A stretch of 64,000 nt of DNA from Citrobacter sp. Cu233 (lineage in GTDB: Bacteria > Pseudomonadota > Gammaproteobacteria > Enterobacterales > Enterobacteriaceae). Within the stretch, counting starts at the first letter, position 1; each line of letters opens with the position of its first letter. The position numbers and the translations under genes are program-made. The stretch spans positions 1 to 64,000 of the forward strand of contig NZ_JAOWIF010000021.1 in assembly GCF_030332225.1 (NCBI RefSeq), given 5' to 3'. Positions 14,730-28,888 of this stretch are shown piece after piece. The notes below the pieces were generated by a model. That model was not told the origin of the DNA and searched no databases. It saw nothing but the letters and a program-made list of their open reading frames with translations.

Positions 14730-15542
14730 TCACCCCGCTCGCGCAAATTCTGCGGCTTCGGCTATCAGCGCGTCATCCGGGCGCACGCCGGTGTACATGG
14801 CGAATTGCTCCACGGCCTGTAAGGCTATGACCTCTGCACCGCTGAGGGTCTTTTTACCCAACTGCTGCGCCAGCTTAATCACCGGTGTTTCCGGCGGCAG
14901 GGCGACCACGTCAAACACTACGCTGGCGGCGGCGACCATCGCTTCGCTGTAGGCCAGTTCGTCGCGCTCTTTACCGCCCGCCATGCCGATGGGCGTCACG
15001 TTGACCAGAATATCGCAGGCAATCCCTTCCGGCTGTGGCTGCCACTGATACCCATATTGTTTTGCCAGCGCCGGGCCGTTCTCGCGGTTACGTGCGGCAA
15101 TAATCACATCACGAAAACCGGCATCGCGAAACGCGGCGATGACGGCTTTGCCCATTCCACCACTGCCACGGATCATGACGCGTGCGCGGTTATCGAGCTG
15201 GTGGCTGGCAATCAGCTTTTTCACCGCAATGTAGTCGGTGTTAAAGCCTGTCAGCGTGCCGTTGTCATTGACGATAGTGTTGACGGAATCAATGGCGCTT
15301 GCGGAAGGATCGATGGCATCCAGAAACGGCATGCAGCTCTCTTTAAACGGCATCGAGACCGCGCAGCCACGGATACCTAATGCCCGTACGCCTTTCACTG
15401 CGGCCTCAATATCCTGCGTAGTAAAGGCTTTATAAATAAAATCTAATCCCAGTTTTTCATACAGATAGTTGTGAAAGCGCGTGCCAAAGTTACCGGGGCG
15501 ACCGGCAAGCGACATGCACAATTGGGTGTCGCGGTTAATCAT
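14730..15542 (-). CDS. AroE/YdiB-like shikimate-family NAD(P)-dependent dehydrogenase
   Basis: about 271 aa from MINRDTQLCMSLAGRPG...; SDH-family fold with a central G-rich dinucleotide motif (GSGGMGKAV); start lies 1 nt after the sorE-like stop. Confidence 0.7.
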   Translation of the reverse strand: MINRDTQLCMSLAGRPGNFGTRFHNYLYEKLGLDFIYKAFTTQDIEAAVKGVRALGIRGCAVSMPFKESCMPFLDAIDPSASAIDSVNTIVNDNGTLTGFNTDYIAVKKLIASHQLDNRARVMIRGSGGMGKAVIAAFRDAGFRDVIIAARNRENGPALAKQYGYQWQPQPEGIACDILVNVTPIGMAGGKERDELAYSEAMVAAASVVFDVVALPPETPVIKLAQQLGKKTLSGAEVIALQAVEQFAMYTGVRPDDALIAEAAEFARAG

Positions 15543-15543
15543 G

Positions 15544-16794
15544 TTAAATCTCCCCGGCGTGAGACAATACGTACTGCTCGGCTTCCTGTGACCAAATCCC
15601 CTGATGACGTTCCAGGATATCGCGTAAGGCCGGATCGTCAATCTGCGTGAGTGCGGTTAGCGGTAACGCTTTGCCGGTGTAGACCAGCTTTTTTCCGCCG
15701 CCGACTTTTGGCAATTCCAGCGTTGTTTCACCTGCCGCATTCAGCCCCAGGATGTGCGTCACCACTTTTGCAGCCTGGACCTTCTTCTCTTCAATCAGTT
15801 TTACCGCCGCGCGCATATCGTCGGTATTGCCGCCAGATGTGCCAACGTAATGGGTAAAAGCATAATGGACGTCATAGAAGTTAATCGGCGCGCTAAACTG
15901 CTTATCCTGCGGGCCGGCAAAGAAATTCATACAGCCATCGGCGGCAAGCAGGGAAGAGGCCAGTGTGACCAACTGTTCATTGGGCACAAACACAAAGATG
16001 TCGTCAAACCCGTGACCGCCGCTCAGCGCCATCAGCGTGTCGTAAGCCGCATCCTGGGCGTGGAGGTAGTGGATCAGCGTTTGTGGTTCTGACGGATAGT
16101 GCTTGCGGGCGTAGCTCAATTTATCGTTGTTGGTGTCGGTCACCACCAGTAGCGCCGGATTTACCGGACCGTGCAATGCGTAGTCGATCGCCAGCAGTCC
16201 CATTGGTCCTGTACCGCCGAGGATCAGCGTGCGCCCTTGCGGACGAATGCCCATCTTATGGTTATAAGTGCCTTCCTGCAGATGATAGTTGGCATTGAAT
16301 GCGCCAATCACGCAGGAAAGCGGCTCAACCAGCGAGCCTTCAAAATAGGTTTCACCTTCGTAGGCCAGCAGGCAATCCTGCTCCATCACCTCATTGGGAA
16401 TGACGACATGCGTAGCTTCGCCGCCCACCCAGGGGAAGGAGTAGCCGGGGCAGTCCGGGCGATCCGGCAGTTGCAGGTTGGCCTGAATCACATAGCGCTG
16501 GCCGGGCTGAAACTTATGCTGCCATTTTTTCCCCACGGCGAGAATATCGCCGCAGAACTCGTGGCCGATGATGATCGGGTTGGTCGCCACATCGTCCGGC
16601 ACCTTTTTGTGGTTCTCACCCTGATTCGCCTCTTTCCAGGAAGAAAGGCACAGGCTGTCAGTCACGACGGAAGCCAAAATTTCATCGTCCTGCATTTCGG
16701 GAAGGTCGAAGGTTTCCAGACGCAGATCGCGTTTACCGTATAATCTCAGAGCTGTTGTTTGCATTGTTACCACCTCTTCCTCTTTTGAGGACAA
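15544..16794 (-). CDS. sorE: Zn-dependent MDR dehydrogenase, L-sorbose-1-phosphate reductase-like
   Basis: about 406–416 aa; GHEFCG zinc-ADH motif; last gene of a sorCDFBAME-type cluster. Confidence 0.75.
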   Translation of the reverse strand: MSSKEEEVVTMQTTALRLYGKRDLRLETFDLPEMQDDEILASVVTDSLCLSSWKEANQGENHKKVPDDVATNPIIIGHEFCGDILAVGKKWQHKFQPGQRYVIQANLQLPDRPDCPGYSFPWVGGEATHVVIPNEVMEQDCLLAYEGETYFEGSLVEPLSCVIGAFNANYHLQEGTYNHKMGIRPQGRTLILGGTGPMGLLAIDYALHGPVNPALLVVTDTNNDKLSYARKHYPSEPQTLIHYLHAQDAAYDTLMALSGGHGFDDIFVFVPNEQLVTLASSLLAADGCMNFFAGPQDKQFSAPINFYDVHYAFTHYVGTSGGNTDDMRAAVKLIEEKKVQAAKVVTHILGLNAAGETTLELPKVGGGKKLVYTGKALPLTALTQIDDPALRDILERHQGIWSQEAEQYVLSHAGEI

Positions 16795-16832
16795 TTTGTT
16801 GAAGTTGCCCCGACATCGCCGGGGCGGAAAAA

Positions 16833-17657
16833 TCAGGACAGGAAGCCCAGCGCGTTACCAATAATCCCCAGCGCAAACAGGGCGAAGATCAGCCATACCG
16901 GATTAATTTTCTTGTTGAGCAGTCGCACCATCAGCAGCGTCAGGCCCAGCGCCAGCAGACCAGGGCAGAGCTGATCGAGTATGTTCTGCACGGTCATGGT
17001 GACGGTGGTACCGTCTGCGCCTGGCGTTTGCGATACCACCAGTGGCACGTTGATACTGGTCCATTTGGTGACCAGTACGCCCATCACAAACAGGCCGAGA
17101 ATCGATGCTCCCTCGGTCAGCTTTTGCAGCAGATTGCCGCCCATATCACTGACGATGTTGACCCCTTTACGAAAGCCAAGTTGTAAGCCATACCACTTCA
17201 TCGCCAGACGTACCGCATTGAAAATAAAGAAGAACAATAACGGGCCGAGAATGTTGCCGGAGAGCGCCAAAGATGCGCCGAGCGCGGCGGTAATCGGGCG
17301 CAACGTTCCCCATACCAACGGGTCACCGACGCCGGCCAGCGGGCCCATCAGCCCGACTTTGATGCCGTTGATTGCGCCATCGTCAATTTCTGCTCCGTTG
17401 GCACGCGCTTCTTCCATCGCAGCGGTGACGCCAATTACCGGACCGCAAACGGCAGGAGTGGTATTGAAGAACACCAGATGACGTTTCAGTGCCGCAACCT
17501 GATCCTCTTTCAGTGGATACAGGCGCTTAATGGCGGGGATCATGTCGTAGCAAAAACCCAGCCCATGAATACGTTCAAAGTTGAATGACGCCTGTTGCAG
17601 GTTGGAGCGAACAAACATGCTAAACAGGTCGGATTTGGTCAGTTTTTTCTGTTCCAT
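16833..17657 (-). CDS. sorM: PTS mannose/sorbose-family EIID component
   Basis: about 274 aa from MEQKKLTKSDLFSMFVRSNLQQASFNFERIHGLGF..., typical IID N-terminus. Confidence 0.8.
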   Translation of the reverse strand: MEQKKLTKSDLFSMFVRSNLQQASFNFERIHGLGFCYDMIPAIKRLYPLKEDQVAALKRHLVFFNTTPAVCGPVIGVTAAMEEARANGAEIDDGAINGIKVGLMGPLAGVGDPLVWGTLRPITAALGASLALSGNILGPLLFFFIFNAVRLAMKWYGLQLGFRKGVNIVSDMGGNLLQKLTEGASILGLFVMGVLVTKWTSINVPLVVSQTPGADGTTVTMTVQNILDQLCPGLLALGLTLLMVRLLNKKINPVWLIFALFALGIIGNALGFLS

Positions 17658-17668
17658 GGTCGGCTCCA

Positions 17669-18466
17669 TTAGTCTTCAAGCTGGTCGAGGGCATCAGGGG
17701 AGGTGGCTTGTGCCTGTGGTTCGGCTTTACGCCACTGCGGGTTCAACTGGATGTAAACCAGCGCGATAATCACGCCTACGCCACCGAAAGCCAGCAGGCT
17801 TAAATCGAGATAACCCCCGGCGATAAACCCGAGGAAGAAGAAAGGCATCAGGTACTTCACACCCATCATGCGCAGCACCATGGCGTAACCGACCACCACG
17901 ATAAAACCACCGGCAATCTGCAACCCACGGGTGACGAATTCCGGGATGGCGTTCAGCATGTTGCTGACCATATCGGCACTGACAAACAGCGAGACAACCA
18001 ACGCCGGAATGGCGACACGCAGCGCCTGCACACCGAGCGCGGAAACGTGGAGCATATCGATGGTGCGAAAGCGTGCGTCTTCCGCGGCTTTATCCGCCGC
18101 ATGCTGAAATACCACAGTGATGGTACGGGCGAAGACTGTCAGCACCTGGCCTGCCGCCGCCACCGGCAGGGCGATAGCGATGCCGGTGGCAATACTCTGC
18201 TGGCCGACGATAACCAGAATGGCGGAAATAATACTGGCGAGCGCCGAATCGGGGGACTGCGCGGCACCGACGTTCATCCAACCCAGAGCAATCAACTCCA
18301 GCGTGCCGCCGAGCATAATCCCGGTTTTTAAATCACCAAGGATCAGGCCGATAACGGTACAGGCGATGAGCGGGCGGTGGGTCTGGAACTCATCCAGCAC
18401 GCTGCCCATTCCGGCAATACAGGAAAATATAAATATGGCGATAATTTGTAGGGTACTTATTTCCAT
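17669..18466 (-). CDS. sorA: PTS mannose/sorbose-family EIIC component
   Basis: 265-aa polytopic membrane protein; stop abuts the IID start. Confidence 0.8.
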   Translation of the reverse strand: MEISTLQIIAIFIFSCIAGMGSVLDEFQTHRPLIACTVIGLILGDLKTGIMLGGTLELIALGWMNVGAAQSPDSALASIISAILVIVGQQSIATGIAIALPVAAAGQVLTVFARTITVVFQHAADKAAEDARFRTIDMLHVSALGVQALRVAIPALVVSLFVSADMVSNMLNAIPEFVTRGLQIAGGFIVVVGYAMVLRMMGVKYLMPFFFLGFIAGGYLDLSLLAFGGVGVIIALVYIQLNPQWRKAEPQAQATSPDALDQLED

Positions 18467-18531
18467 GATATGTCACCTTAAAGATATGACGATCCCTGCC
18501 TGTTACGGCATATTTCTACAGGCGCTATTTA

Positions 18532-19026
18532 TTATTTGCTAACGGACTGCTCTTTTATTTTCTCAAGAATATTAATTGCTGGGTCGGAGGCAACGACGCG
18601 TAAATCCAGTTTCACTCCCAACTGGTCCAGTTTGTGAAAAGCATTAATATCGTCATCATCTAAAGAAACGGCTTTGGTTAATTGCTTTTTACCCGGTCGC
18701 CAGGCCATGCCGCCAATATTTAATGTGGCGATTTTTACCCCTTGCTTTACCATGGCCAGCGCATCCTGCGGGCGGGTAAAGAGATAAAAAACGGTTTCAT
18801 TCTGATATTGCGGATTATGATAAACCGCCACCGCCTTTTCGATATTCACGACATTGACCTTCATCCCCGGCGGGGCAGCCTGGCGTAATAATGTTCGGCG
18901 AACTTCATCGTTATAGACCTCATCATTGCAGATAATAATCCGCTGGGCGTTTGCCACTTTCGACCAGACGGTAGTGACCTGGCCGTGGATCAGGCGGTCA
19001 TCAATACGGGCAAGGGTAATGTTCAT
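18532..19026 (-). CDS. sorB: PTS mannose/sorbose-family EIIB component
   Basis: 164 aa from MNITLARIDDRLIHGQV (IIB-Man phospho-His motif); start overlaps the EIIA stop (TGATG). Confidence 0.8.
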   Translation of the reverse strand: MNITLARIDDRLIHGQVTTVWSKVANAQRIIICNDEVYNDEVRRTLLRQAAPPGMKVNVVNIEKAVAVYHNPQYQNETVFYLFTRPQDALAMVKQGVKIATLNIGGMAWRPGKKQLTKAVSLDDDDINAFHKLDQLGVKLDLRVVASDPAINILEKIKEQSVSK

Positions 19027-19433
19027 CAAAAATCCTCTTCGGTCGTTGCCAGTGGCTTCCAGACAACGCAGGTTTGTTGAGCAATGGTCGTCAGGTGTTC
19101 GCACAGTTCATCCACATTCATACTGCTCTGGTTGTCAACCAGCTCCAGTGCCAGCGGCAGTGACAACCCGCTAATAACCCGTATCGACGGGTTTTGCATC
19201 GCCAGCGTCGCGGCGGCATTCCATGGACTGCCACACTGCAGATCGACGGCAATCAGCCATTCATCATTGGTGTGAACGCTTACTAACTCTTTCAGTTTTG
19301 CCACGATATCGCTGGCGTTTTCACCGGGGACAAATTCCACGGCTTCAACGTTGGTCTCACCGTAGACCATCTGCACCGATTCCAGCATGGCGCAGGCCAG
19401 TTTGCCGTGGGCGCAGAAGATTGCATTGACCAT
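19026..19433 (-). CDS. sorF: PTS mannose/sorbose-family EIIA component
   Basis: 135 aa MVNAIFCAHGKLA...; His10 in an IIA-Man context. Confidence 0.8.
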   Translation of the reverse strand: MVNAIFCAHGKLACAMLESVQMVYGETNVEAVEFVPGENASDIVAKLKELVSVHTNDEWLIAVDLQCGSPWNAAATLAMQNPSIRVISGLSLPLALELVDNQSSMNVDELCEHLTTIAQQTCVVWKPLATTEEDF

Positions 19434-19442
19434 AAAACCTCC

Positions 19443-20255
19443 TTAGCCGCGCGTTTTTCCGCCCGCAATGTTAGTGGTTACTCCGGTGATGTAGCTGGCG
19501 CGTTCAGACAACAGATAACAAACAAAATCAGCCACTTCCCCCAACCTTCCTGAACGACCAATGGGGATCGAGTTTTTGGTATAACCCTCGCGCAGCTGCT
19601 CGACGGTGATATTGCGGGTCCAGGCCAGCGCTTCTTCATATTCGGGGGTGCGCAGCCCGGTTTTTTCCAGAATGCCAGGCGCAATACCAACCACACGAAT
19701 CCCGTGTTTGCCCAGCTCTTTTGACCACGAGCGGGTAAAGCTATTCAGCGCGGCTTTGGTGGCGGCGTAGCAGCTCTGACCTTCAGAACCTTCCAGTCCG
19801 CTTTCTGAAGAGACATTCACAATCACGCCGTCATGCTGTGTTACCATCTGGCGCGCTACCGCTTGCGACATTAAAAAAACGCCTTTTTGGTTGATATTGA
19901 CCATTTTTTCAAAAGCGGCTTCATTGAGTTCATATTGCCCGGCCGGGGCTTTTTCATCGACCAGCAGGCGCGGGAAATTAACCCCCGCGTTATTCACCAG
20001 CCCATCAATACGGCCGAAACGCCGGATAATTTCAGCAACGGTGTGGCTGACTTCTTTGGCGCTGGAAATATCCGTCGGCCAGAAATGATATTTGCTGTGG
20101 TCGGTATATTTACCGTCGCCACCATGAATATCTGCCATCTGTACATTAGCACCTTGCGCTAATAACTCTTCAACAATGGCCAGGCCAATTCCTGATGCGC
20201 CACCGGTAACAATAATGACTTTATCCTGCAGATTTAACCACGTTTGCATAATCAA
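19443..20255 (-). CDS. sorD: SDR-family dehydrogenase, D-glucitol(sorbitol)-6-phosphate dehydrogenase-like
   Basis: about 268 aa; TGGASGIG Rossmann motif and YAATKAAL catalytic motif. Confidence 0.8.
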   Translation of the reverse strand: MIMQTWLNLQDKVIIVTGGASGIGLAIVEELLAQGANVQMADIHGGDGKYTDHSKYHFWPTDISSAKEVSHTVAEIIRRFGRIDGLVNNAGVNFPRLLVDEKAPAGQYELNEAAFEKMVNINQKGVFLMSQAVARQMVTQHDGVIVNVSSESGLEGSEGQSCYAATKAALNSFTRSWSKELGKHGIRVVGIAPGILEKTGLRTPEYEEALAWTRNITVEQLREGYTKNSIPIGRSGRLGEVADFVCYLLSERASYITGVTTNIAGGKTRG

Positions 20256-20319: not shown

Positions 20320-21273
20320 TTACTTCAACAACAATTCAGCGGTATGACTGTTAGTGACTAAACCGTTAATATAATTCCCACGTAATGCACCAAGTATTCC
20401 ATTCAGTTTTTCTTCCCCCATGGCAATGCCGATGGAGTAACGCGCCTGCTTTAATTTATTGGTTTCGATCGAGAGTGTTTTTTCACTCATACTGGTCTCT
20501 ACCGTCACGCCGTTGATATCATAAAAGCGCGAGCAAATGTCTCCGGCGACATGGCGGGCATGCAGGTCATCACTCTCTTCGCTGCCGTAAAAGGCGTGCC
20601 AGTTGGCACCGTCCCTAATCGCCGGGGAGCCAATTCCGACCAGCGCGACGTCCAGATTATCCCAGTAGGCGGAAATTGAGCGGAAGTGTCGGGACTGCAT
20701 AATCCCGTTACGGATCAGCGGGTTTTCCAGAAGCGCCGGGAAATCTGCCAGGTGCGATTCCCCTTTGAGCTTTGCCGCTGCACCGTAGGTCAGCGTATTG
20801 ACGTGGTAACGGCTTTCAAGCTTGCCGGAGGGACCGCCGATAATCGGCACACAGATCAACTGGCGTGACTGGCTGGCCGGGGATAATCCTTCGACCAGCC
20901 CCCGAACGGCGCGCCCCCATGAGAAGCCGATAATATCGCCGGGTTCCAGTAAGCGCTCCAGCAGCTGTGCGCCGTGCACACCCATCATCGCGAGTTGTTC
21001 GTCTTCCTGTTCGCTGTCGCAGGAGACCACCACCGCTTCTTTCAGGCCAAATTTCTGTTTTAGCTGCTGTTCCAGCCACAGGTTTTCGTTGAAATCGTAA
21101 TTGATGGCAATGGTAACGATGCCTGATTCGCGGCCACGTTTTAGCAGGCGGCTGATAGTGGTGCGATAAATTCCCAGCTCGCGGGCGATTTGCGCTTGCG
21201 TCATATCCTGTTCGTAATAGAGCTGCGCTATTTTTACGATCAGGCGGATATCATCGCTGTTTTCCGTTGCCAT
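20320..21273 (-). CDS. sorC: SorC-family transcriptional regulator of the sorbose operon
   Basis: 317 aa from MATENSDDIRLIVKIAQLYYEQDMTQAQIARELGIYRTTISRLLK (HTH) plus a sugar-phosphate-binding domain; AGGAG SD 6 nt upstream. Confidence 0.8.
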   Translation of the reverse strand: MATENSDDIRLIVKIAQLYYEQDMTQAQIARELGIYRTTISRLLKRGRESGIVTIAINYDFNENLWLEQQLKQKFGLKEAVVVSCDSEQEDEQLAMMGVHGAQLLERLLEPGDIIGFSWGRAVRGLVEGLSPASQSRQLICVPIIGGPSGKLESRYHVNTLTYGAAAKLKGESHLADFPALLENPLIRNGIMQSRHFRSISAYWDNLDVALVGIGSPAIRDGANWHAFYGSEESDDLHARHVAGDICSRFYDINGVTVETSMSEKTLSIETNKLKQARYSIGIAMGEEKLNGILGALRGNYINGLVTNSHTAELLLK

Positions 21274-21742
21274 CTTTAGGCTCCTGCACATTTGTGCAAA
21301 TCACGAAATTGTCTTCTTGATCTGATATAACCCCATCGATGGCCCAGTTCAAAGTAATTTTCTCTTCTTTCAGCGCCATGAACTGGCAGTTTGTGTTGCA
21401 CATTTGATGTACCGATAGTGCGTTGTCGGCACATATGAGCTTATTGATGTAATACCTTGATTCTGTGTATTTTCGCGCAACAAAATTGCAGGCATGGGTT
21501 GCGGACACTTTTGTGTCGAAAGGTGTGACGGATCACAAATAGCGCCCGGGCGTTAGAACACGACTATTTTTTATCGCCCGCAAGGTAGGGTATATTTCGC
21601 TTTTAATACACAAAATCATTCAAGTTGTATCACGGCGGCAAGGGAGCAAACCCCTGGGAGCATAGATGGCTATGTGACCCGGGTGAGTGAGGGCAGCCAG
21701 CGCAGAGACAGTTTGAAGGATGCAGTGTATACAGGAGAAATT

Positions 21743-23091: not shown

Positions 23092-23448
23092 ATGCTTTCA
23101 GTCAGGCAAGCGTCGAAGCCTATTGCCTGGGTCGGCCGGTCATTCGATGATTTATGCCGTTTCCCGGAAGAGGTGCGTAAAGACGCAGGGTATCAGTTAC
23201 ATCGTTTGCAGGCTGGCCTGGAAGCGGCAGACTGGAAACCGATGACAGAAATTGGGCCGGGTGTTGAAGAGGTTCGATTACGGCATGTTTGCGGAATTTA
23301 TCGGATTATCTATTTTGCCCGCCTCGAGGATGCTGTTTATGTGTTGCACTGTTTCGGCAAAAAGACACAGCGCGCTTCTGAGCAGGATAAACGTATTGCA
23401 AAAGCCCGTTATCAGGCGGTACAGCAAGAGCTAAGGAAACGAAAATGA
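23092..23448 (+). CDS. Gp49/HigB-like (RelE/ParE superfamily) toxin
   Basis: 118 aa; GIYRIIYFARLEDAVYVLHCFGKKTQRASEQDKRIA matches the phage Gp49/DUF891 HigB-like toxin signature; toxin-first order; ATGA overlap with the downstream HTH gene. Confidence 0.65.
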   Translation: MLSVRQASKPIAWVGRSFDDLCRFPEEVRKDAGYQLHRLQAGLEAADWKPMTEIGPGVEEVRLRHVCGIYRIIYFARLEDAVYVLHCFGKKTQRASEQDKRIAKARYQAVQQELRKRK

Positions 23449-23783
23449 GCCCCTCCATTGATGTCAAAATCCATCACGTGACGCCTGCGGATGCCAATAT
23501 TTTTTCTGAGCTGGGGTTTAGTGGCGAGGAATCCCAACGGCTTTATCAGGATGCCGAACGAGAAGTTGAGCAACTTATTGCGCTTAAACAGCAGCTGATG
23601 CAGGAAATTTCCGTCTGGATTGACGAACACAAACTGAAACAGGCAGACGCCGCCCTGAAATTAAATATCTCCCGACCACGGGTTTCGGATGTTGTGAACC
23701 AGAAAACCAACAAATTTACCCTGGACGCTTTGGTCATGATGCTGGTGAAACTTGGCAAGCCAGTAACGCTGCAAGTGGGTTAG
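23445..23783 (+). CDS. XRE-family HTH antitoxin (HigA-like)
   Basis: 112 aa; C-terminal HTH (QADAALKLNISRPRVSDVVNQK); partner of the upstream toxin. Confidence 0.65.
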   Translation: MSPSIDVKIHHVTPADANIFSELGFSGEESQRLYQDAEREVEQLIALKQQLMQEISVWIDEHKLKQADAALKLNISRPRVSDVVNQKTNKFTLDALVMMLVKLGKPVTLQVG

Positions 23784-23854: not shown

Positions 23855-24799
23855 TTATTCGTTTTCTTCCGCCGTCTGATGCGGTTTCTCTTCAATCGGC
23901 TTACCGGACCAGTAACCCGCCAGCAGCGAGCCGGAAAGGTTATGCCAGACGGAGAACAGCGCGCCGGGCAGGGCGGCGAGCGGACCGAAGTAGATTTTGC
24001 CCAGTGCAGCGGCAAGCCCTGAATTCTGCATACCGACTTCAATCGCCAGTGTGCGGCAGGTGGATTCATCAAAGCCGAAGAGTTTTCCGCCCCAGTAGCC
24101 GCCGAGCAAACCAATGGTGTTATGCAGAATAACGGCGATAATCACCACAAAGCCGACTGACGCAATGTGCGAGGCGGAACCCGCCACGACGGCGCTGATG
24201 ATCGCCAGGATGCACACCATAGAAAACGCGGGCAGATACGGCTCCACGGCTTTTACGACGCGCGGGAACAGATGGTGAATGACCAGGCCTAAAGCAATCG
24301 GAATAACCACGATCTGCAGAATACTCAGCAGCATACCCATAACATCCACCTGAATATGCGCATCGACGTAAAGACGGGTGAGCAGTGGCGTGGCGACGAC
24401 ACCGACCAGCGTTGAAACCGATGAAATCGTCACGGAGAGCGCCACATCACCCTTCGCCAGATAGATCATTACGTTTGATGCCGTTCCGCTGGCTACGCTA
24501 CCGACCAGCACCATACCTGCGGACAATTCCGGCGGCATATTAAAAGCCAGCGCCAAAATCCATGCGGCGAGCGGCATCACCAGATAGTGCAGGAAAATAC
24601 CTGCAGCAACCGGTGCAGGGCGTGAGAGTACGCGTTTAAAGTCATCTACCTTCAGGTGAACACCCATGCCGAACATAATCAGCATCAGTAATGACGGCAC
24701 GAATGGCCCGACTGGCGTAAAGGTGGGGGGCGTGTAATACGCAATAACAGAGAGCAGCAGCGCCCATAACGGGAACAGCCGCGTGAGAGTAGCGAGCAT
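23855..24799 (-). CDS. Bile acid:sodium symporter (BASS/SBF) family transporter
   Basis: 314-aa polytopic protein with BASS-like topology and motifs ([17 protein letters not shown]...; [11 protein letters not shown]). Confidence 0.7.
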
Positions 24800-24835: not shown

Positions 24836-24862
24836 ATAAAAAAGCCGGGATCGAGCCCGGCC
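24836..24862 (-). terminator. Hairpin plus U-run downstream of the rtcR-like gene (minus strand)
   Basis: On the minus strand: GCCGGGCTCGATCCCGGC followed by TTTTTTATAA. Confidence 0.45.
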
Positions 24863-24910: not shown

Positions 24911-26491
24911 TCATGTTCCGCAGCGAACGCTTTCCCAGCTCAGTCCAAAACGGGCGAGATATTTTCGCAGGCGATCGGCATCGTTAGGATTGGCTTTTTT
25001 CTGCCGCGAAACGGCAAACAGTTCGCGTCCGGCTTCCGACAGCGACGCACAGCGGCGGCACACTTCCAGCACCGTTTCTAACTGGCGGCGATCGAACAGG
25101 TCAATGTCCATGTTCAGTTCAGGTTGCGAAGCGGCGATCTGCCAGCTCTCCTTTAACAGCGCAATCTCTTCTTCGACAAGGGATAAGGTGATGCGACCTT
25201 GTTCGGCAAGTGTCGCCATGCGCGCGATGGATGAGCTTAGCTCGCGAAAATTGCCGCGCCATTGCGCCTGTGGGGAGCAGGCAAATGCCAGATAGCAAAC
25301 ACGTGCCTCTTTATCGAAACGGATCTGCGTCTGTTTATTGCTGGAAAAACGTTGCAGTTCATACTCGACGTTCGGGGCGATATCTTCCCGCCGCTGCGCC
25401 AGACCGGGTAGGGCGAAGCTCCACATATTGATACGCGCGTAGAGATCCTCGCGAAAACGGCCCTCAGCGACCCACTGTGACATGTTGCGATGGGTTCCGG
25501 CAATCAGCTGAAAATCGCTGTGTACTTCTTTGTCCGACCCAAACGGGAAAAAGGTTTTTTCTTCAATCGCTTTTAGCAGCATGGCCTGCTCATCCAGCCC
25601 CAACTCGGCAATCTCATCGAGAAACAGCACGCCGCCATCCGCTTCTCGCAGCAATCCGCTACGTGCCGTGAGTGCGCCAGTAAACGCCCCCTTCACATGA
25701 CCAAATAACGTGGACATCGCATTATCGCCGCGTAGGGTCGCGCAGTTGACTGCGACCAGTTTTCCCGCCATCAGATGCCGCGACTGGCGCAGCTGAAAAA
25801 TACGTTTCGCGAGGAAGGATTTGCCCGCGCCGGTAGGGCCGGTCAGCAGGATCGGGTCGGTCGAACGCAGAGCCACCCGCTCAATGCGATCGATCAGTTT
25901 ATTGAACGTGGCGTTGCGCGTATCAATCCCGGCTTTCAAAAAAGAGACCGACTGCTGCTGCTCGCGCTGAAAGCGACTGGTGAGCGTGGCATAGCGACTT
26001 AAATCGAGGTCGATAACCGAGCAGACGCCAGCAGCGACGGCTTCATCAGTAGAACCTTTTGGCGCCGGGCTGGTTTGCAGCAGGCTGGCGGGCAGGTAGC
26101 GCGCTTCCGTCAGCAAAAACCAGCAGATCTGCGCCACGTGAGTGCCGGTGGTGATGTGCACCAGATACTCTTCGTTTTCCGTATCAAATTCATAATTCGT
26201 GGCAAAGTCGAGAAACGCGGCGTAGACCTCTTCAAAATCCCACGGATCGTTAATGGTTACGGTATGCGGGCGGACTTCGGTGTGAGGCGAAAGCAGCACA
26301 ACGTCTTCAATCAATCTTTGCACCATGCTCTCATCGCGTGGCTGGTGGAGGAGTTCCAGCCTGTCGACAGGGAAATCAGGCTGTTGGCATAGCCCAACTG
26401 TGGGGCGCCACTTCTTAAACCGATTGGCTCGCTTGCCGCGTTTATCCAGCACCGTTCCCAGTACGCCAATCACTACCCGTCGCTTCTTCAT
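24911..26491 (-). CDS. RtcR-like sigma-54-dependent transcriptional activator (N-terminal CARF-like domain + AAA+ GAFTGA domain + C-terminal HTH)
   Basis: 526 aa; N-terminus MKKRRVVIGVLGTVLDKRGKRANRFKKWRPTVGLCQQ resembles RtcR CARF; Walker A GPTGAGKS, GAFTGA, Walker B FLDEI; second paralog besides the canonical rtcR locus. Confidence 0.8.
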   Translation of the reverse strand: MKKRRVVIGVLGTVLDKRGKRANRFKKWRPTVGLCQQPDFPVDRLELLHQPRDESMVQRLIEDVVLLSPHTEVRPHTVTINDPWDFEEVYAAFLDFATNYEFDTENEEYLVHITTGTHVAQICWFLLTEARYLPASLLQTSPAPKGSTDEAVAAGVCSVIDLDLSRYATLTSRFQREQQQSVSFLKAGIDTRNATFNKLIDRIERVALRSTDPILLTGPTGAGKSFLAKRIFQLRQSRHLMAGKLVAVNCATLRGDNAMSTLFGHVKGAFTGALTARSGLLREADGGVLFLDEIAELGLDEQAMLLKAIEEKTFFPFGSDKEVHSDFQLIAGTHRNMSQWVAEGRFREDLYARINMWSFALPGLAQRREDIAPNVEYELQRFSSNKQTQIRFDKEARVCYLAFACSPQAQWRGNFRELSSSIARMATLAEQGRITLSLVEEEIALLKESWQIAASQPELNMDIDLFDRRQLETVLEVCRRCASLSEAGRELFAVSRQKKANPNDADRLRKYLARFGLSWESVRCGT

Positions 26492-26626
26492 GGTTTATCC
26501 AAAAAGATAAATAAGAGAATAAAAGATAAAAAATTTAACCCATCAAGACAATCGTCATTATTGGTGGAGGTAATTTAAATAATAAAAATCAATTAATTAA
26601 AAATTAATTATGCCAATGTTAATTCC

Positions 26627-26642
26627 TGGCACGCTTCTGGCA
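26627..26642 (+). promoter_or_regulatory. Sigma-54 (-24/-12) promoter TGGCACGCTTCTGGCA driving the SPFH/NTase operon
   Basis: Matches TGGCAC-N5-TTGCA at GG/GC with correct 12-nt spacing; lies between the divergent rtcR-like gene and the operon; preceded by an AT-rich stretch at 26500–26620. Confidence 0.55.
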
Positions 26643-26939
26643 ATAACACTTTAGTCAATCACGCTGAAAGCGCAGGGGGTTAAACCCCGCCGGCACGTCA
26701 GGAACTGCACAGGCTGTTTTCCGGGAGTGTTCCGTCAGCCGATGACCACCCAACGGGTTCGATTCCCGATTCATTCTCCCAATGAAACTGGTTGTTAATC
26801 ATAGAAATAAAACGGAGCAATGCGCAGTTAGCACGCTCCAGAACAGGCTGCCGGTAAAGATGCCGTGCGACAGGCAAAAGGGAATTCCCCTGCCGCTTCG
26901 CCCCTGCACCCGCGCCTGGCTCACAATAAGGAATAATAA

Positions 26940-28067
26940 ATGATGAAGAAAATCACTATACAAAAAGCGCAGTTAGGTCTTTTATCCCGCGAGGGCGATT
27001 ACTATCAGGCACTGGAAGCGGGTCAGCACCGTTTACCGTGGTTTAACACCCCGGAAGTGCTGATCGTTAATAGGGATGGCAGCGAAGTACCGGAAGCGTT
27101 AGCGGAGTATTTGCGCCGCTTTCAGCCCTCCTGGGTGGAACGTTACTGCCTGGTCGCGGATACGACGGACACCGAAGCCGGGGCGCTGTATGTCAATGGC
27201 GTTTTGCAGGAGATCCTGCCACCGGCAACGCGCCGTCTGTACTGGCAGGCCGATGAGGCACTGAACCTGGTGCGCATGGATACGCGTCAGGTTCAGGTAC
27301 CACCGGACGTTATGAATGCAGTATTACAGCCACGCCGCAGCGGTACAGTAAAAGGCCGTGACGCGATCTTAACGGTGCAGGTTCCGGCGTGGCACGTCGG
27401 CGTGTTGAAAATCGATGGCGAAACCCAGGCGCTGTTGCCGCCAGGATTAACAGCTTACTGGAAGGTAAACCATCTGATTGAAGCGGAAGTCGTTGATACC
27501 CGTTTACAAGTTCTGGAGGTCGGCGGCCAGGAGATCCTGACCAAAGATAAGGTCAACCTGCGTTTAAACCTGGCGGCGAACTGGCGTTACAGCGATGTGT
27601 TGCTGGCTTTTGGCCAACTGACTAAACCGCTGGAGCACCTTTACCGCGAGTTGCAGTTTGCGCTGCGTGAGGCTGTCGGTACTCGAACGCTGGACGAGCT
27701 GCTGGAAGATAAGCAGGTGATTGACGATGTGGTGAGCACGCAGGTGAAAACCCGCATGACGCCGTTTGGTATCGAGGTGGATTCGCTGGGCGTGAAAGAT
27801 ATCGTCCTGCCGGGCGATATGAAAGCCATTTTGTCGCAACTGGTTGAAGCGGAAAAATCCGCCCAGGCCAACGTCATTCGTCGACGCGAAGAAACCGCCG
27901 CGACGCGATCGCTGTTGAATACCGCAAAAGTGATGGAAAACAACCCGGTGGCGCTGCGTTTAAAAGAGCTGGAAACCCTCGAAAGAGTGGCGGAGCGTAT
28001 CGATAAAATCTCGGTATTCGGTGGCCTTGACCAGGTGCTGCACGGTCTGGTGAATATAAAAGGATAA
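26940..28067 (+). CDS. SPFH/band-7 (slipin-like) domain protein, apparently lacking a TM anchor
   Basis: 375 aa; SPFH core about residues 190–330 (ILTKDKVNLRLNL...; coiled C-terminus); AAGGA SD; no hydrophobic helix evident. Confidence 0.75.
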   Translation: MMKKITIQKAQLGLLSREGDYYQALEAGQHRLPWFNTPEVLIVNRDGSEVPEALAEYLRRFQPSWVERYCLVADTTDTEAGALYVNGVLQEILPPATRRLYWQADEALNLVRMDTRQVQVPPDVMNAVLQPRRSGTVKGRDAILTVQVPAWHVGVLKIDGETQALLPPGLTAYWKVNHLIEAEVVDTRLQVLEVGGQEILTKDKVNLRLNLAANWRYSDVLLAFGQLTKPLEHLYRELQFALREAVGTRTLDELLEDKQVIDDVVSTQVKTRMTPFGIEVDSLGVKDIVLPGDMKAILSQLVEAEKSAQANVIRRREETAATRSLLNTAKVMENNPVALRLKELETLERVAERIDKISVFGGLDQVLHGLVNIKG

Positions 28068-28072
28068 GTGAA

Positions 28073-28858
28073 ATGAGCGACAACGGAGTGAATGCCGCGA
28101 TGCGCGAACGGGTGTTTCGCCAGCTAAAAGAAGTGGAGCGGCGCTATAACGTCAAAGTGCTATACGCCTGCGAATCCGGCAGCCGTGGCTGGGGATTTGC
28201 CTCGCCGGACAGCGATTACGACGTGCGATTTCTCTATGTTCATCCCCCCGAATGGTATCTGCGGGTCGAAGCGCCACGAGATGTTATCGAACTGCCGATA
28301 GATGATGAGCTGGACGTGTGCGGCTGGGAATGGCGCAAGGCGCTGGGGTTGCTCAAAGACGCAAACCCGACGCTTATCGAGTGGCTGGATTCGCCGGTGA
28401 TCTATCTGCAGGACGAAGTGGCGGTGTCGGCGTTGAAAACGTTGGTGCCTAAATGGTTTTCCCCGCTACGTGCCCGCTGGCACTACTATTCGATGGCGCG
28501 GAAAAACTTTCGCGGTTATCTGCAGGGTGACGACGTGCGATTGAAGAAGTACTTCTACGTTCTGCGACCACTGTTGGCGGTGCGTTGGGTGGAAGCAGGG
28601 AAGGGTGTGCCGCCGATGCGTTTTGCCGATCTGCTGGTGGGAAGTGAACTGGATGCGCCATTGTGTCAGGAAATCGACGAATTGTTGGCACGCAAACAGC
28701 GGTCAGGTGAGGCTGAGTATGGTCCGCGTCGTCCATTGCTACATGCGTTTATCCGCGCCGAACTGGAGAGAGGAGAAATCCCACCGACGTTACCGGACAG
28801 CCGGGAAGGGGATGCCAGGGAACTGGACAGACTGTTATATGACACGGTGATGCGGTGA
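28073..28858 (+). CDS. Pol-beta superfamily nucleotidyltransferase domain protein
   Basis: 261 aa; GSRGWGFASPDSDYDV (GS-x9-D-x-D NTase motif); starts 5 nt after the SPFH stop, so translationally coupled. Confidence 0.7.
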   Translation: MSDNGVNAAMRERVFRQLKEVERRYNVKVLYACESGSRGWGFASPDSDYDVRFLYVHPPEWYLRVEAPRDVIELPIDDELDVCGWEWRKALGLLKDANPTLIEWLDSPVIYLQDEVAVSALKTLVPKWFSPLRARWHYYSMARKNFRGYLQGDDVRLKKYFYVLRPLLAVRWVEAGKGVPPMRFADLLVGSELDAPLCQEIDELLARKQRSGEAEYGPRRPLLHAFIRAELERGEIPPTLPDSREGDARELDRLLYDTVMR

Positions 28859-28863
28859 AAATA

Positions 28864-28888
28864 CCCGATGGCGTAAGAACCATCGGGC
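28864..28888. terminator. Hairpin between the NTase gene and convergent lysC
   Basis: CCCGATGG-cgtaagaa-CCATCGGG; the U-run is on the minus-strand (lysC) side (TATTTTCACC). Confidence 0.45.

Follow-up and report, generated by a model that had tools for sequence, protein, structure and literature searches.

In Escherichia coli and Klebsiella oxytoca, the canonical rtc locus consists of the regulatory gene rtcR and a divergent rtcBA operon encoding the RtcB ligase and the RtcA cyclase. Salmonella carries a related RtcR/sigma-54 operon, rsr-yrlBA-rtcBA, in which the gene for a ring or scaffold protein is co-transcribed with a tRNA-mimicking noncoding RNA. A third arrangement was predicted in 2016 by Burroughs and Aravind who, as summarized in later preprints, named the nucleotidyltransferase RlaP for its linkage to RNA ligases (cited in bioRxiv 10.64898/2025.12.29.696909) and placed a 'band-7-associated tRNA', or b7a-tRNA, beside genes for a Band-7 protein and RtcB, a prediction described as still experimentally unvalidated in 2018 (bioRxiv 10.1101/312249). 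The 64,000-nucleotide stretch of Citrobacter sp. Cu233 DNA analysed here (contig NZ_JAOWIF010000021.1, positions 1 to 64,000; 'the window') contains an rtcR gene divergent from a two-gene operon that encodes a Band-7 protein and an RlaP-family nucleotidyltransferase and is preceded by a structured leader RNA. This locus is probably a reduced, ligase-less member of the Band-7-type rtc operon, an RNA-damage response.

Several parts of the Band-7-type system have been described. The RlaP proteins of Pseudomonas fluorescens and P. aeruginosa, encoded between rtcB and rtcA under RtcR control, add one or two nucleoside monophosphates to RNA 3'-OH ends and restore aminoacylation-competent tRNA in vitro (bioRxiv 10.64898/2025.12.29.696909). 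PaFlo8, an SPFH protein of P. aeruginosa, is encoded inside the rtc locus (PMC13086221). The b7a-tRNA and YrlA have been proposed to be functionally redundant (bioRxiv 10.1101/312249). Since 2016, the Band-7/b7a-tRNA arm of RNA repair has existed as a computational prediction alone, lacking a validated RNA or a phenotype, and the two operon products in the window are currently annotated merely as 'slipin family protein' and 'nucleotidyltransferase domain-containing protein'. A first-pass annotation of the window, made from sequence alone, knew of no characterised function for the combination. In view of the 2016 prediction and the in vitro work on RlaP, complete novelty was overstated. What appears to be new is the ligase-less enterobacterial variant, a leader reduced to a T-arm inside a larger conserved RNA, a natural reciprocal loss of rtcR that points to a split regulon, and a scaffold protein built of repeats, an SPFH domain and a helix.

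An alignment of 40 diverse full-length relatives of the Band-7 protein led to 80 loci from reference genomes, which were annotated by tblastn. The proteobacterial loci nearest to that of the window typically read reverse-strand rtcR, Band-7, RtcB, RlaP and RtcA, and Pseudomonas, Burkholderiales, Rhodocyclales and related groups show this divergent order with small variations. In six enterobacterial loci, among them the window and representatives of Klebsiella, Superficieibacter, Mangrovibacter and Lonsdalea, the order is reverse-strand rtcR, Band-7, RlaP, and the three genes are 67-94% identical at the protein level across these four genera and Citrobacter. Loci of Providencia and Gilliamella combine rtcR, Band-7 and RtcB. 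This makes Band-7 and RlaP regular accessory members of one type of rtc operon and, judged by gene content, the window carries a version of it minus ligase and cyclase. The first-pass annotation had read the locus as the RtcR chassis wired to a different effector pair; the operon is truncated rather than rewired. The survey of gene neighbourhoods proposed at that stage does find the trio recurring in enterobacteria, but elsewhere it is usually joined by RtcB and RtcA.

The P. aeruginosa PA14 rtc locus (PaFlo8, PaRlaP) and survey loci L011, L013, L018, L020, L029, L034 and L036 exemplify the Band-7-type operon. The Citrobacter locus shares with them the divergent layout and orthologous RtcR (62-65% identity), Band-7 (53-60%, full length) and RlaP (56-62%, relative to RlaP genes inside RtcB operons). 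Also shared are a sigma-54 promoter, a site resembling those of integration host factor (IHF), a TTATC-N6-GATAA palindrome, a leader 5' hairpin with a CYGGYRC motif, and a T-loop element. The Citrobacter operon differs in having neither rtcB nor rtcA, and its leader of ~290 nt holds one T-arm remnant, whereas leaders of the Band-7 type are ~500 nt long and hold one or two complete tRNA-like genes. Its regulator belongs to the same family as that of the canonical E. coli and K. oxytoca loci, and both kinds of locus have a sigma-54 promoter as well as GATA/TATC-type palindromes by the rtcR start. Unlike the Citrobacter locus, the canonical loci direct RtcR to ligase and cyclase genes, have a short leader in E. 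coli, contain no Band-7, RlaP or T-arm RNA, and sit at glpR|malT rather than at yjbD|lysC. The Salmonella operon resembles the Citrobacter locus in pairing a scaffold gene with a tRNA-mimicking RNA under RtcR and sigma-54, but its scaffold is TROVE/Ro60 instead of SPFH, its RNA belongs to the Y RNAs, and it includes ligase and cyclase. No Rfam Y RNA match was found in the Citrobacter locus. Searches of the window with tblastn detected no rtcB, no rtcA and no second rtcR, and there is no ligase in the RlaP operon or elsewhere in the 64 kb.

Profile matches indicate that the regulator is a true RtcR, beyond the RtcR-like architecture with a CARF domain first assigned to it. Pfam RtcR (PF06956) aligns to residues 3-188 over all of its 183 positions (1-183, 2.2e-81), Sigma54_activat (3e-48) and AAA_lid_14 are also matched, and the NCBIfam RtcR equivalog NF038308, whose cutoff is 650 bits, scores 820 bits over residues 3-523. 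The PADLOC model RtcR--CARF_AAA_HTH gives 865 bits. The translation has GAFTGA as well as GPTGAGKS, the Walker A motif. Full-length identity to E. coli RtcR is 62% and reaches ~70% in the C-terminal 47 residues, the helix-turn-helix (HTH) end. Compared with the RtcR of Band-7-type operons that include rtcB, the enterobacterial RtcR forms a clade of its own, and the Band-7-linked and canonical RtcR types of K. oxytoca are ~60% identical. The CARF domain of Salmonella RtcR binds 5' tRNA halves with cyclic-phosphate ends (PMC7790460), and the Citrobacter protein, at 62% identity, may sense its ligand in the same way.

The nucleotidyltransferase matches the complete profile of the 'RNA repair pathway DNA polymerase beta family' (PF10127, 3.2e-96, positions 1-249 of 249), which assigns it to RlaP, one of the folds considered in the first-pass annotation. 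The Pol-beta catalytic motif G[SG]...DxD is present as GSRGWGFASPDSDYD, and the translation also contains GSRGWGFASPDSDYDV, as had been reported. WP_286627873.1 of Citrobacter sp. Cu233 has exactly the same sequence, and no structure in the PDB was matched by sequence. The activity of the family suggests that Citrobacter RlaP carries out RNA 3'-nucleotidyl transfer.

The Band-7 protein was expected to be a soluble SPFH protein, and the data agree. Band_7 (PF01145) is matched at residues 147-318 (2e-24), and no transmembrane segment is found, the maximum Kyte-Doolittle mean over 19 residues being 0.99. An AlphaFold2 model (pLDDT 88.7) consists of three beta repeats of ~45 residues (2-44, 70-114 and 143-186), the SPFH domain and a long C-terminal helix. 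Its close structural matches are all SPFH proteins that form rings or cages, and the model suggests a soluble oligomeric scaffold. The nearest relatives are Citrobacter proteins with 94% identity. Membrane SPFH assemblies (stomatin/slipin-NfeD, HflK/C, prohibitin and QmcA-YbbJ) differ from it: the Citrobacter protein has no anchor, no NfeD or FtsH partner, ~190 extra N-terminal residues comprising the three beta repeats, and an RNA-repair context. Its low hydropathy and its neighbours, RtcR and RlaP, place it outside the stomatin/slipin-NfeD group, so that the genes are not the ordinary slipin/NfeD housekeeping genes that the first-pass annotation had allowed for. One recent paper reported PaFlo8-type proteins to be absent from Enterobacterales; the loci compiled here show that they do occur in this order.

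The domain order of the model is similar to that of the eukaryotic major vault protein (MVP), the partner of vault RNA, and MVP gives the longest structural alignments, yet its scores fall below those of stomatin. MVP has nine repeats against three in Band-7, identity is just 12-15%, and the rmsd is large. A vault-like cage is thus only a lead. It is unlikely that Band-7 is a miniature bacterial counterpart of MVP that cages a tRNA-mimic RNA and forms, with RlaP, a complete ligase-independent pathway for capture and 3'-end healing or tagging in Citrobacter. If true, this would establish a second mode of RNA-damage response beside RtcB ligation and a prokaryotic model of vault-type ribonucleoproteins.

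In distant bacteria, the pair of RNA and Band-7 gene occurs alone beside unrelated neighbours, and it can therefore evidently work without a ligase in cis. This pair appears to form the core, with RtcB, RlaP, RtcA and RtcR as variable additions. Separately, cyanobacterial loci (L052-L074; Nostoc, Chlorogloeopsis and others) encode full-length relatives with 44-45% identity and have no RtcR, RtcB or sigma-54 promoter, nor a T-loop RNA within 750 nt. Together with other distant loci that are likewise devoid of RtcR, RtcB and the RNA motifs, they span 41-47% identity. The cyanobacterial proteins look like a separate, uncharacterised branch of soluble SPFH proteins. Many other relatives (P0122, P0125, P0127, P0130 and others) are 500-560 residues long and match the query in two stretches, which suggests extra copies of the N-terminal beta repeat and a repeat number that varies within the family.

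The intergenic region upstream of the Band-7 gene contains a structured leader RNA that had gone unnoticed in the first-pass annotation. The leader is conserved from the promoter to the ATG in seven enterobacterial loci. RNAalifold predicts extensive pairing in their alignment, with 61 pairs left once those involving the promoter are removed. At these pairs 92.3% of the cells are paired, against 37-49% when partners are slid by one to three columns, and compensatory changes affect 30 of the 61 pairs, where the slid controls give 4-10, a contrast that is inflated because structure and covariation count come from the same alignment. The observed values are reached in none of 500 column shuffles, and the excess of double changes is large despite the shared alignment.

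The conserved RNA comprises a 5' domain, a T-arm mimic followed directly by a hairpin, and a 3' domain (Table 1). The 5' domain also extends beyond the enterics. A model trained on the enteric leaders alone (R2) recovers it at the expected position in Dechloromonas (L016, 33.7 bits) and in L025, L022 and L012, these loci belonging to Dechloromonas, P. entomophila and Burkholderiales, and most proteobacterial loci carry a hairpin with the CYGGYRC motif 110-130 nt upstream of their T-loops. The T-arm and its adjoining 5-7-bp hairpin fold in all seven enteric leaders when the sequences are folded singly, with stem sequences that vary by genus. Register shifts kept RNAalifold from calling the second hairpin. 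A T-arm stacked on a capped hairpin would have the geometry of a tRNA acceptor/T minihelix.

Complete tRNA-like genes are found at the same place in other loci. ARAGORN reports 54 of them, spread over 43 of 82 loci, in the 750 nt that precede Band-7. They have canonical D- and T-arms, heterogeneous or malformed anticodon loops and mostly no CCA, features that fit the predicted b7a-tRNA. ARAGORN finds no tRNA-like gene in the leader of the window or in the other enterobacterial loci. A covariance model of 44 b7a-tRNAs matches the window at T-arm positions 50-64 only (14 bits, E about 1e-4). By these comparisons the leader is a reduced homologue of the b7a-tRNA region, and in enterics the operon has dropped rtcB and rtcA, and its tRNA-like leader gene has shrunk to a T-arm and an adjoining hairpin. 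No Rfam family matches the leader, either in 9 kb around the locus or with the leader alone at E <= 10, where a 15-nt partial T-arm fragment of tmRNA and noise are all that is returned.

Two other interpretations of the leader were discarded. Its only sizeable open reading frame, for 53 aa at 26782-26943, is unconserved and was rejected as a leader peptide. An acceptor-like stem around the T-arm (GCGAA/TTCGC, UGAUA/UAUCG or GAUGA/UCAUC) covaries in some genera; it was dropped because it does not hold up in E. coli or K. oxytoca and is in competition with the downstream hairpin. In the canonical rtcR-rtcB intergenic region of K. oxytoca (L086, 7830-8000), the rtcB leader runs for ~170 nt past the sigma-54 promoter, compared with ~45 nt in E. 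coli. Within the K. oxytoca leader, a CCGG-UUCAG-CCGG hairpin with CG after it is similar to the T-loop-like 5' hairpin found in Band-7 leaders.

The 448 bp between rtcR and the Band-7 gene have a classical layout for sigma-54-dependent control, with a palindrome, an IHF-like site and a -24/-12 element. The promoter, TGGCACGCTTCTGGCA, precedes the operon. Its sequence and position are kept in orthologous loci, 310-580 nt upstream of Band-7, and the E. coli rtcBA promoter reads TGGCACGACGGTTGCA. The strict sigma-54 pattern TGGCAC-N5-TTGC gives zero matches because the -12 element reads TGGCA; K has to be allowed at that position. An IHF-like match is found at about -41 in 16 of 28 promoter-bearing loci, compared with 1.2% of shuffles, and by its agreement with the consensus the site may bind IHF. 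The palindrome pattern [TC]TAT[CA]-N6-GATA[AG] occurs at -104 to -147 in 15 of the 28 loci, compared with 0.4% of shuffles. Its instance in the window, TTATCCAAAAAGATAA, is a candidate binding site for RtcR, and the palindrome persists at L001, the E. coli locus without rtcR, and upstream of an orphan rtcBA in Superficieibacter.

A promoter scan of the region found no sigma-70-like promoter facing the operon, such as would have allowed constitutive expression. The sole sigma-70-like match, TTGCCA-16-TAACAT at 26616-26643 on the reverse strand, points along rtcR and overlaps the sigma-54 promoter on the other strand. Should it be genuine, transcription of rtcR and activation of the operon could interfere. 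Downstream of the promoter, the Band-7 and RlaP genes are separated by 5 nt (TAA-gtgaa-ATG), and an AAAGGA ribosome binding site (RBS) for the second gene lies within the end of the first, which makes the tight translational coupling proposed earlier plausible. The operon likely ends at a hairpin between the convergent RlaP and lysC genes, which the terminator scan left uncalled because there is no T-run on the forward strand.

The locus is an insertion between yjbD and lysC beside a toxin-antitoxin pair, as the first-pass annotation had stated. It is flanked on one side by yjbD (DUF3811), a Gp49/HigB-like and HTH_37 pair and PanS, and by lysC and pgi on the opposite side. An insertion with leader, Band-7 and RlaP occupies the same site in 403 of 5426 complete E. 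coli genomes (7%), with no adjacent rtcR. These rtcR-less loci keep the sigma-54 promoter and the palindrome TTATCTTTCTTGATAA, and rtcBA is present in 5424 of the 5426 genomes. In E. coli C11, a zeta-toxin family gene lies between RlaP and lysC (L001, 9281-10207). The window has rtcR, panS and the HigB/HigA-like pair on the other side, and the cargo of the island therefore varies by genus.

Superficieibacter sp. 1612_C1 has the converse arrangement to E. coli. Its canonical site carries rtcB-rtcA without rtcR, and its rtcR is at the Band-7-RlaP locus (L008). The orphan rtcBA keeps CTATC-N6-GATAA and CGATA-N6-TATCG palindromes and a TGGCAT-N5-TTGCA promoter. K. oxytoca has Band-7-RlaP with rtcR (L006) as well as the canonical glpR | rtcR <-> rtcB-rtcA | malT. 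The reciprocal loss of rtcR in E. coli and Superficieibacter suggests that the two loci are one split RtcR regulon, which could be served by either regulator.

In Citrobacter, the canonical site is empty. The glpR gene abuts malT in the C. freundii/braakii complex, and in C. amalonaticus the gap is filled by unrelated catabolic genes. No Citrobacter-named protein is among the best 120 relatives of E. coli RtcB (down to 71% identity), and a literature search on rtcB in Citrobacter returned nothing relevant. From the empty site and the lack of a Citrobacter name in that list, the RtcR of the window is probably the only one of Citrobacter. The first-pass annotation had called it a second RtcR; the window has one, and it is K. 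oxytoca that does have two.

The following sequence of events is proposed. Broken tRNAs with 2',3'-cyclic-phosphate ends would bind to the RtcR CARF domain, as in Salmonella, and the regulator would oligomerise and activate sigma-54 transcription of the leader RNA, Band-7 and RlaP. Band-7 would assemble into a large soluble ring or cage, like every solved SPFH protein, and, together with the tRNA-mimic RNA, could collect damaged tRNA-like substrates in the role of a scaffold or cofactor. RlaP would then add one or two nucleotides to the 3'-OH ends of damaged RNA. Sealing, where any takes place, would be done by a ligase encoded elsewhere; E. coli, K. oxytoca and Superficieibacter have one in their native rtcBA. 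In Citrobacter no ligase was found, so that its module may act on RNA 3' ends by healing or tagging them without sealing.

A number of points weigh against this proposal. RtcR activation needs RtcA in Salmonella and both RtcA and RtcB in E. coli (PMC7790460; PMC9650030). A Citrobacter cell devoid of both proteins has no evident switch for RtcR, unless toxins directly supply cyclic-phosphate ends. The products of RlaP end in 3'-OH and cannot be joined by RtcB, a difficulty raised by the authors of the RlaP preprint themselves (bioRxiv 10.64898/2025.12.29.696909). General assays of a P. aeruginosa paFlo8 deletion revealed no phenotype. Beside the inflated covariation contrast, the folding energy of single leader sequences is unremarkable. 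The absence of RtcB from Citrobacter is judged from one empty syntenic site and the names of the top 120 relatives, not from a whole-genome search. Finally, the transcription start site, RtcR binding, RNA processing, the interaction of Band-7 with RNA and the RlaP substrates in Citrobacter are all predictions.

The 3'-OH ends left by RlaP, which RtcB cannot use, could also be read as a signal for decay. The Band-7-RNA particle and RlaP might give broken RNAs short 3' tails that destine them for exonucleolytic removal, much as Ro60 and Y RNA tether PNPase, and no ligase would be needed. Indeed, none is found in cis nor, apparently, anywhere in Citrobacter, and Rsr with its Y RNA, which takes the position of Band-7 and b7a-tRNA in other rtc operons, degrades RNA with PNPase (bioRxiv 10.1101/312249). 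This role is improbable, if least so for Citrobacter, as the same proteins share operons with RtcB in most genomes, nucleotide addition by RlaP improved the aminoacylation of repaired tRNA in vitro, and the locus contains no nuclease.

The setting of the operon had suggested a membrane-associated abortive-infection module in a defence island. Here RtcR would sense RNA damage caused by phage, and the SPFH protein and nucleotidyltransferase would kill or arrest the cell or modify phage RNA. Compatible with this role are the accessory nature of the yjbD|lysC insertion, which only 7% of E. coli carry, and its company, a HigB/HigA-like pair in the window and a zeta-toxin gene in E. coli C11. So are the inclusion of RtcR models in PADLOC, relatives of RlaP in phages including T4, and the general view of RNA repair systems in the literature as counter-measures in toxin and phage conflicts. 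However, Band-7 is soluble rather than membrane-anchored, and in PADLOC-DB 2.0 only the RtcR regulator model is matched, Band-7 and RlaP having no match. The GC content equals that of the flanks, and no mobility genes were found at the locus. The orthologues keep operon company with the repair enzymes RtcB and RtcA, which points to healing rather than killing, and RlaP restores aminoacylation-competent tRNA in vitro. A defence function is accordingly given a low likelihood.

Least credible is a decaying remnant that drifts towards functionless pseudogenes after the loss of rtcB and rtcA, its leader conserved by recent common ancestry: ligase and cyclase are gone, the tRNA-like gene is down to a T-arm, rtcR is lost from the E. 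coli version and the P. aeruginosa Band-7 gene has no known phenotype, but the three reading frames are intact and full length against family models, the three-gene layout is kept in five genera at 67-94% protein identity, leader changes are compensatory rather than random, promoter, IHF-like site and palindrome are retained, and RNA plus Band-7 occur alone in distant bacteria.

Read as a reduced Band-7-type rtc operon, the enterobacterial variant is the simplest form of this arm of RNA repair, built from a single regulator, a single structured RNA and two proteins. Genetically tractable hosts carry it, namely Citrobacter, Klebsiella and about 7% of E. coli. Natural genotypes include both loci with two rtcR genes (K. 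oxytoca), rtcR at rtcBA only (E. coli), rtcR at Band-7-RlaP only (Superficieibacter), and no rtcBA found (Citrobacter). Their comparison makes testable the role of an SPFH protein with a tRNA-mimic RNA, the action of RlaP with and without a ligase, and the activation of RtcR without RtcA and RtcB.

Table 1. Coordinates of genes, RNA elements and control sites of the Citrobacter locus (window positions; a dot marks features without strand).
Feature	Position	Strand	Description
rtcR	24911-26491	-	526 aa; CARF (RtcR_N), sigma-54 AAA+ (GAFTGA) and C-terminal HTH activator
Band-7 gene	26940-28067	+	375 aa; soluble SPFH/Band-7 protein
RlaP gene	28073-28858	+	261 aa; RlaP-family Pol-beta nucleotidyltransferase
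Candidate RtcR upstream activator site	26495-26510	.	Palindrome TTATCCAAAAAGATAA beside rtcR start, 132 nt upstream of promoter
Further copy of AAAGATAA	26522-26529	.	Near candidate activator palindrome
IHF-like site	26587-26599	+	AATCAATTAATTA (WATCAANNNNTTR), 40 nt upstream of promoter
Sigma-54 promoter (-24/-12)	26627-26642	+	TGGCACGCTTCTGGCA; sole match in window
Leader RNA	26654-26939	+	~290 nt, co-transcribed with Band-7 and RlaP; start near 26654 predicted
Leader 5' domain	26663-26739	+	Enclosing stem 26663-67/26735-39; 12 pairs with compensatory changes (helices 1-3)
Small T-loop-like hairpin	26672-26690	+	GGGGG-UUAAA-CCCC, then CGCCGGCAC; in leader 5' domain
Long hairpin of 5' domain	26692-26731	+	In leader 5' domain
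tRNA T-arm mimic	26754-26768	+	CGGG-UUCGAUU-CCCG (CGGGUUCGAUUCCCG); compensatory changes in T stem (helix 4)
Hairpin after T-arm mimic	26770-26786	+	UUCAUU-CUCCC-AAUGAA, directly adjoining
Leader 3' domain	26816-26917	+	Helices 5-7; 16 pairs with compensatory changes
Hairpin and long bipartite stem of 3' domain	26816-26839; 26846-55/26908-17 and 26862-78/26885-26901	+	
RBS of Band-7 gene	26928-26932	+	AAGGA, 10 nt past leader 3' domain; read from sequence
Terminator-like hairpin and T-run downstream of rtcR	24843-24862	-	Terminator scan; GGCCGGGCTCGATCCCGGCT TTTTTATAAC on - strand
8-bp hairpin between convergent RlaP and lysC genes	28864-28887	.	CCCGATGG-N8-CCATCGGG; read from sequence

The three open reading frames have the positions and sizes called in the first-pass annotation. 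On the far side of rtcR, the yjbD|lysC insertion also contains panS, immediately downstream of rtcR at 23855-24799 on the reverse strand. The encoded protein is a ketopantoate/pantoate/pantothenate transporter (NCBIfam equivalog, 547 bits), and the gene is missing from the E. coli version of the insertion. Between yjbD and panS lies the toxin-antitoxin-like pair (23092-23783, forward strand), whose genes overlap by 4 nt. They encode a Gp49/HigB-like protein (PF05973, 4e-23) and an HTH_37 antitoxin-like protein (PF13744, 3e-16), the latter with an additional weak PADLOC match to PDC-M64C. A second accessory block relative to the E. coli order metH-yjbB-pepE-rluF lies upstream of rluF. It is a reverse-strand cluster of sorbose/mannose-type phosphotransferase system and dehydrogenase genes with a SorC-family regulator (14730-20249 and 20320-21291).

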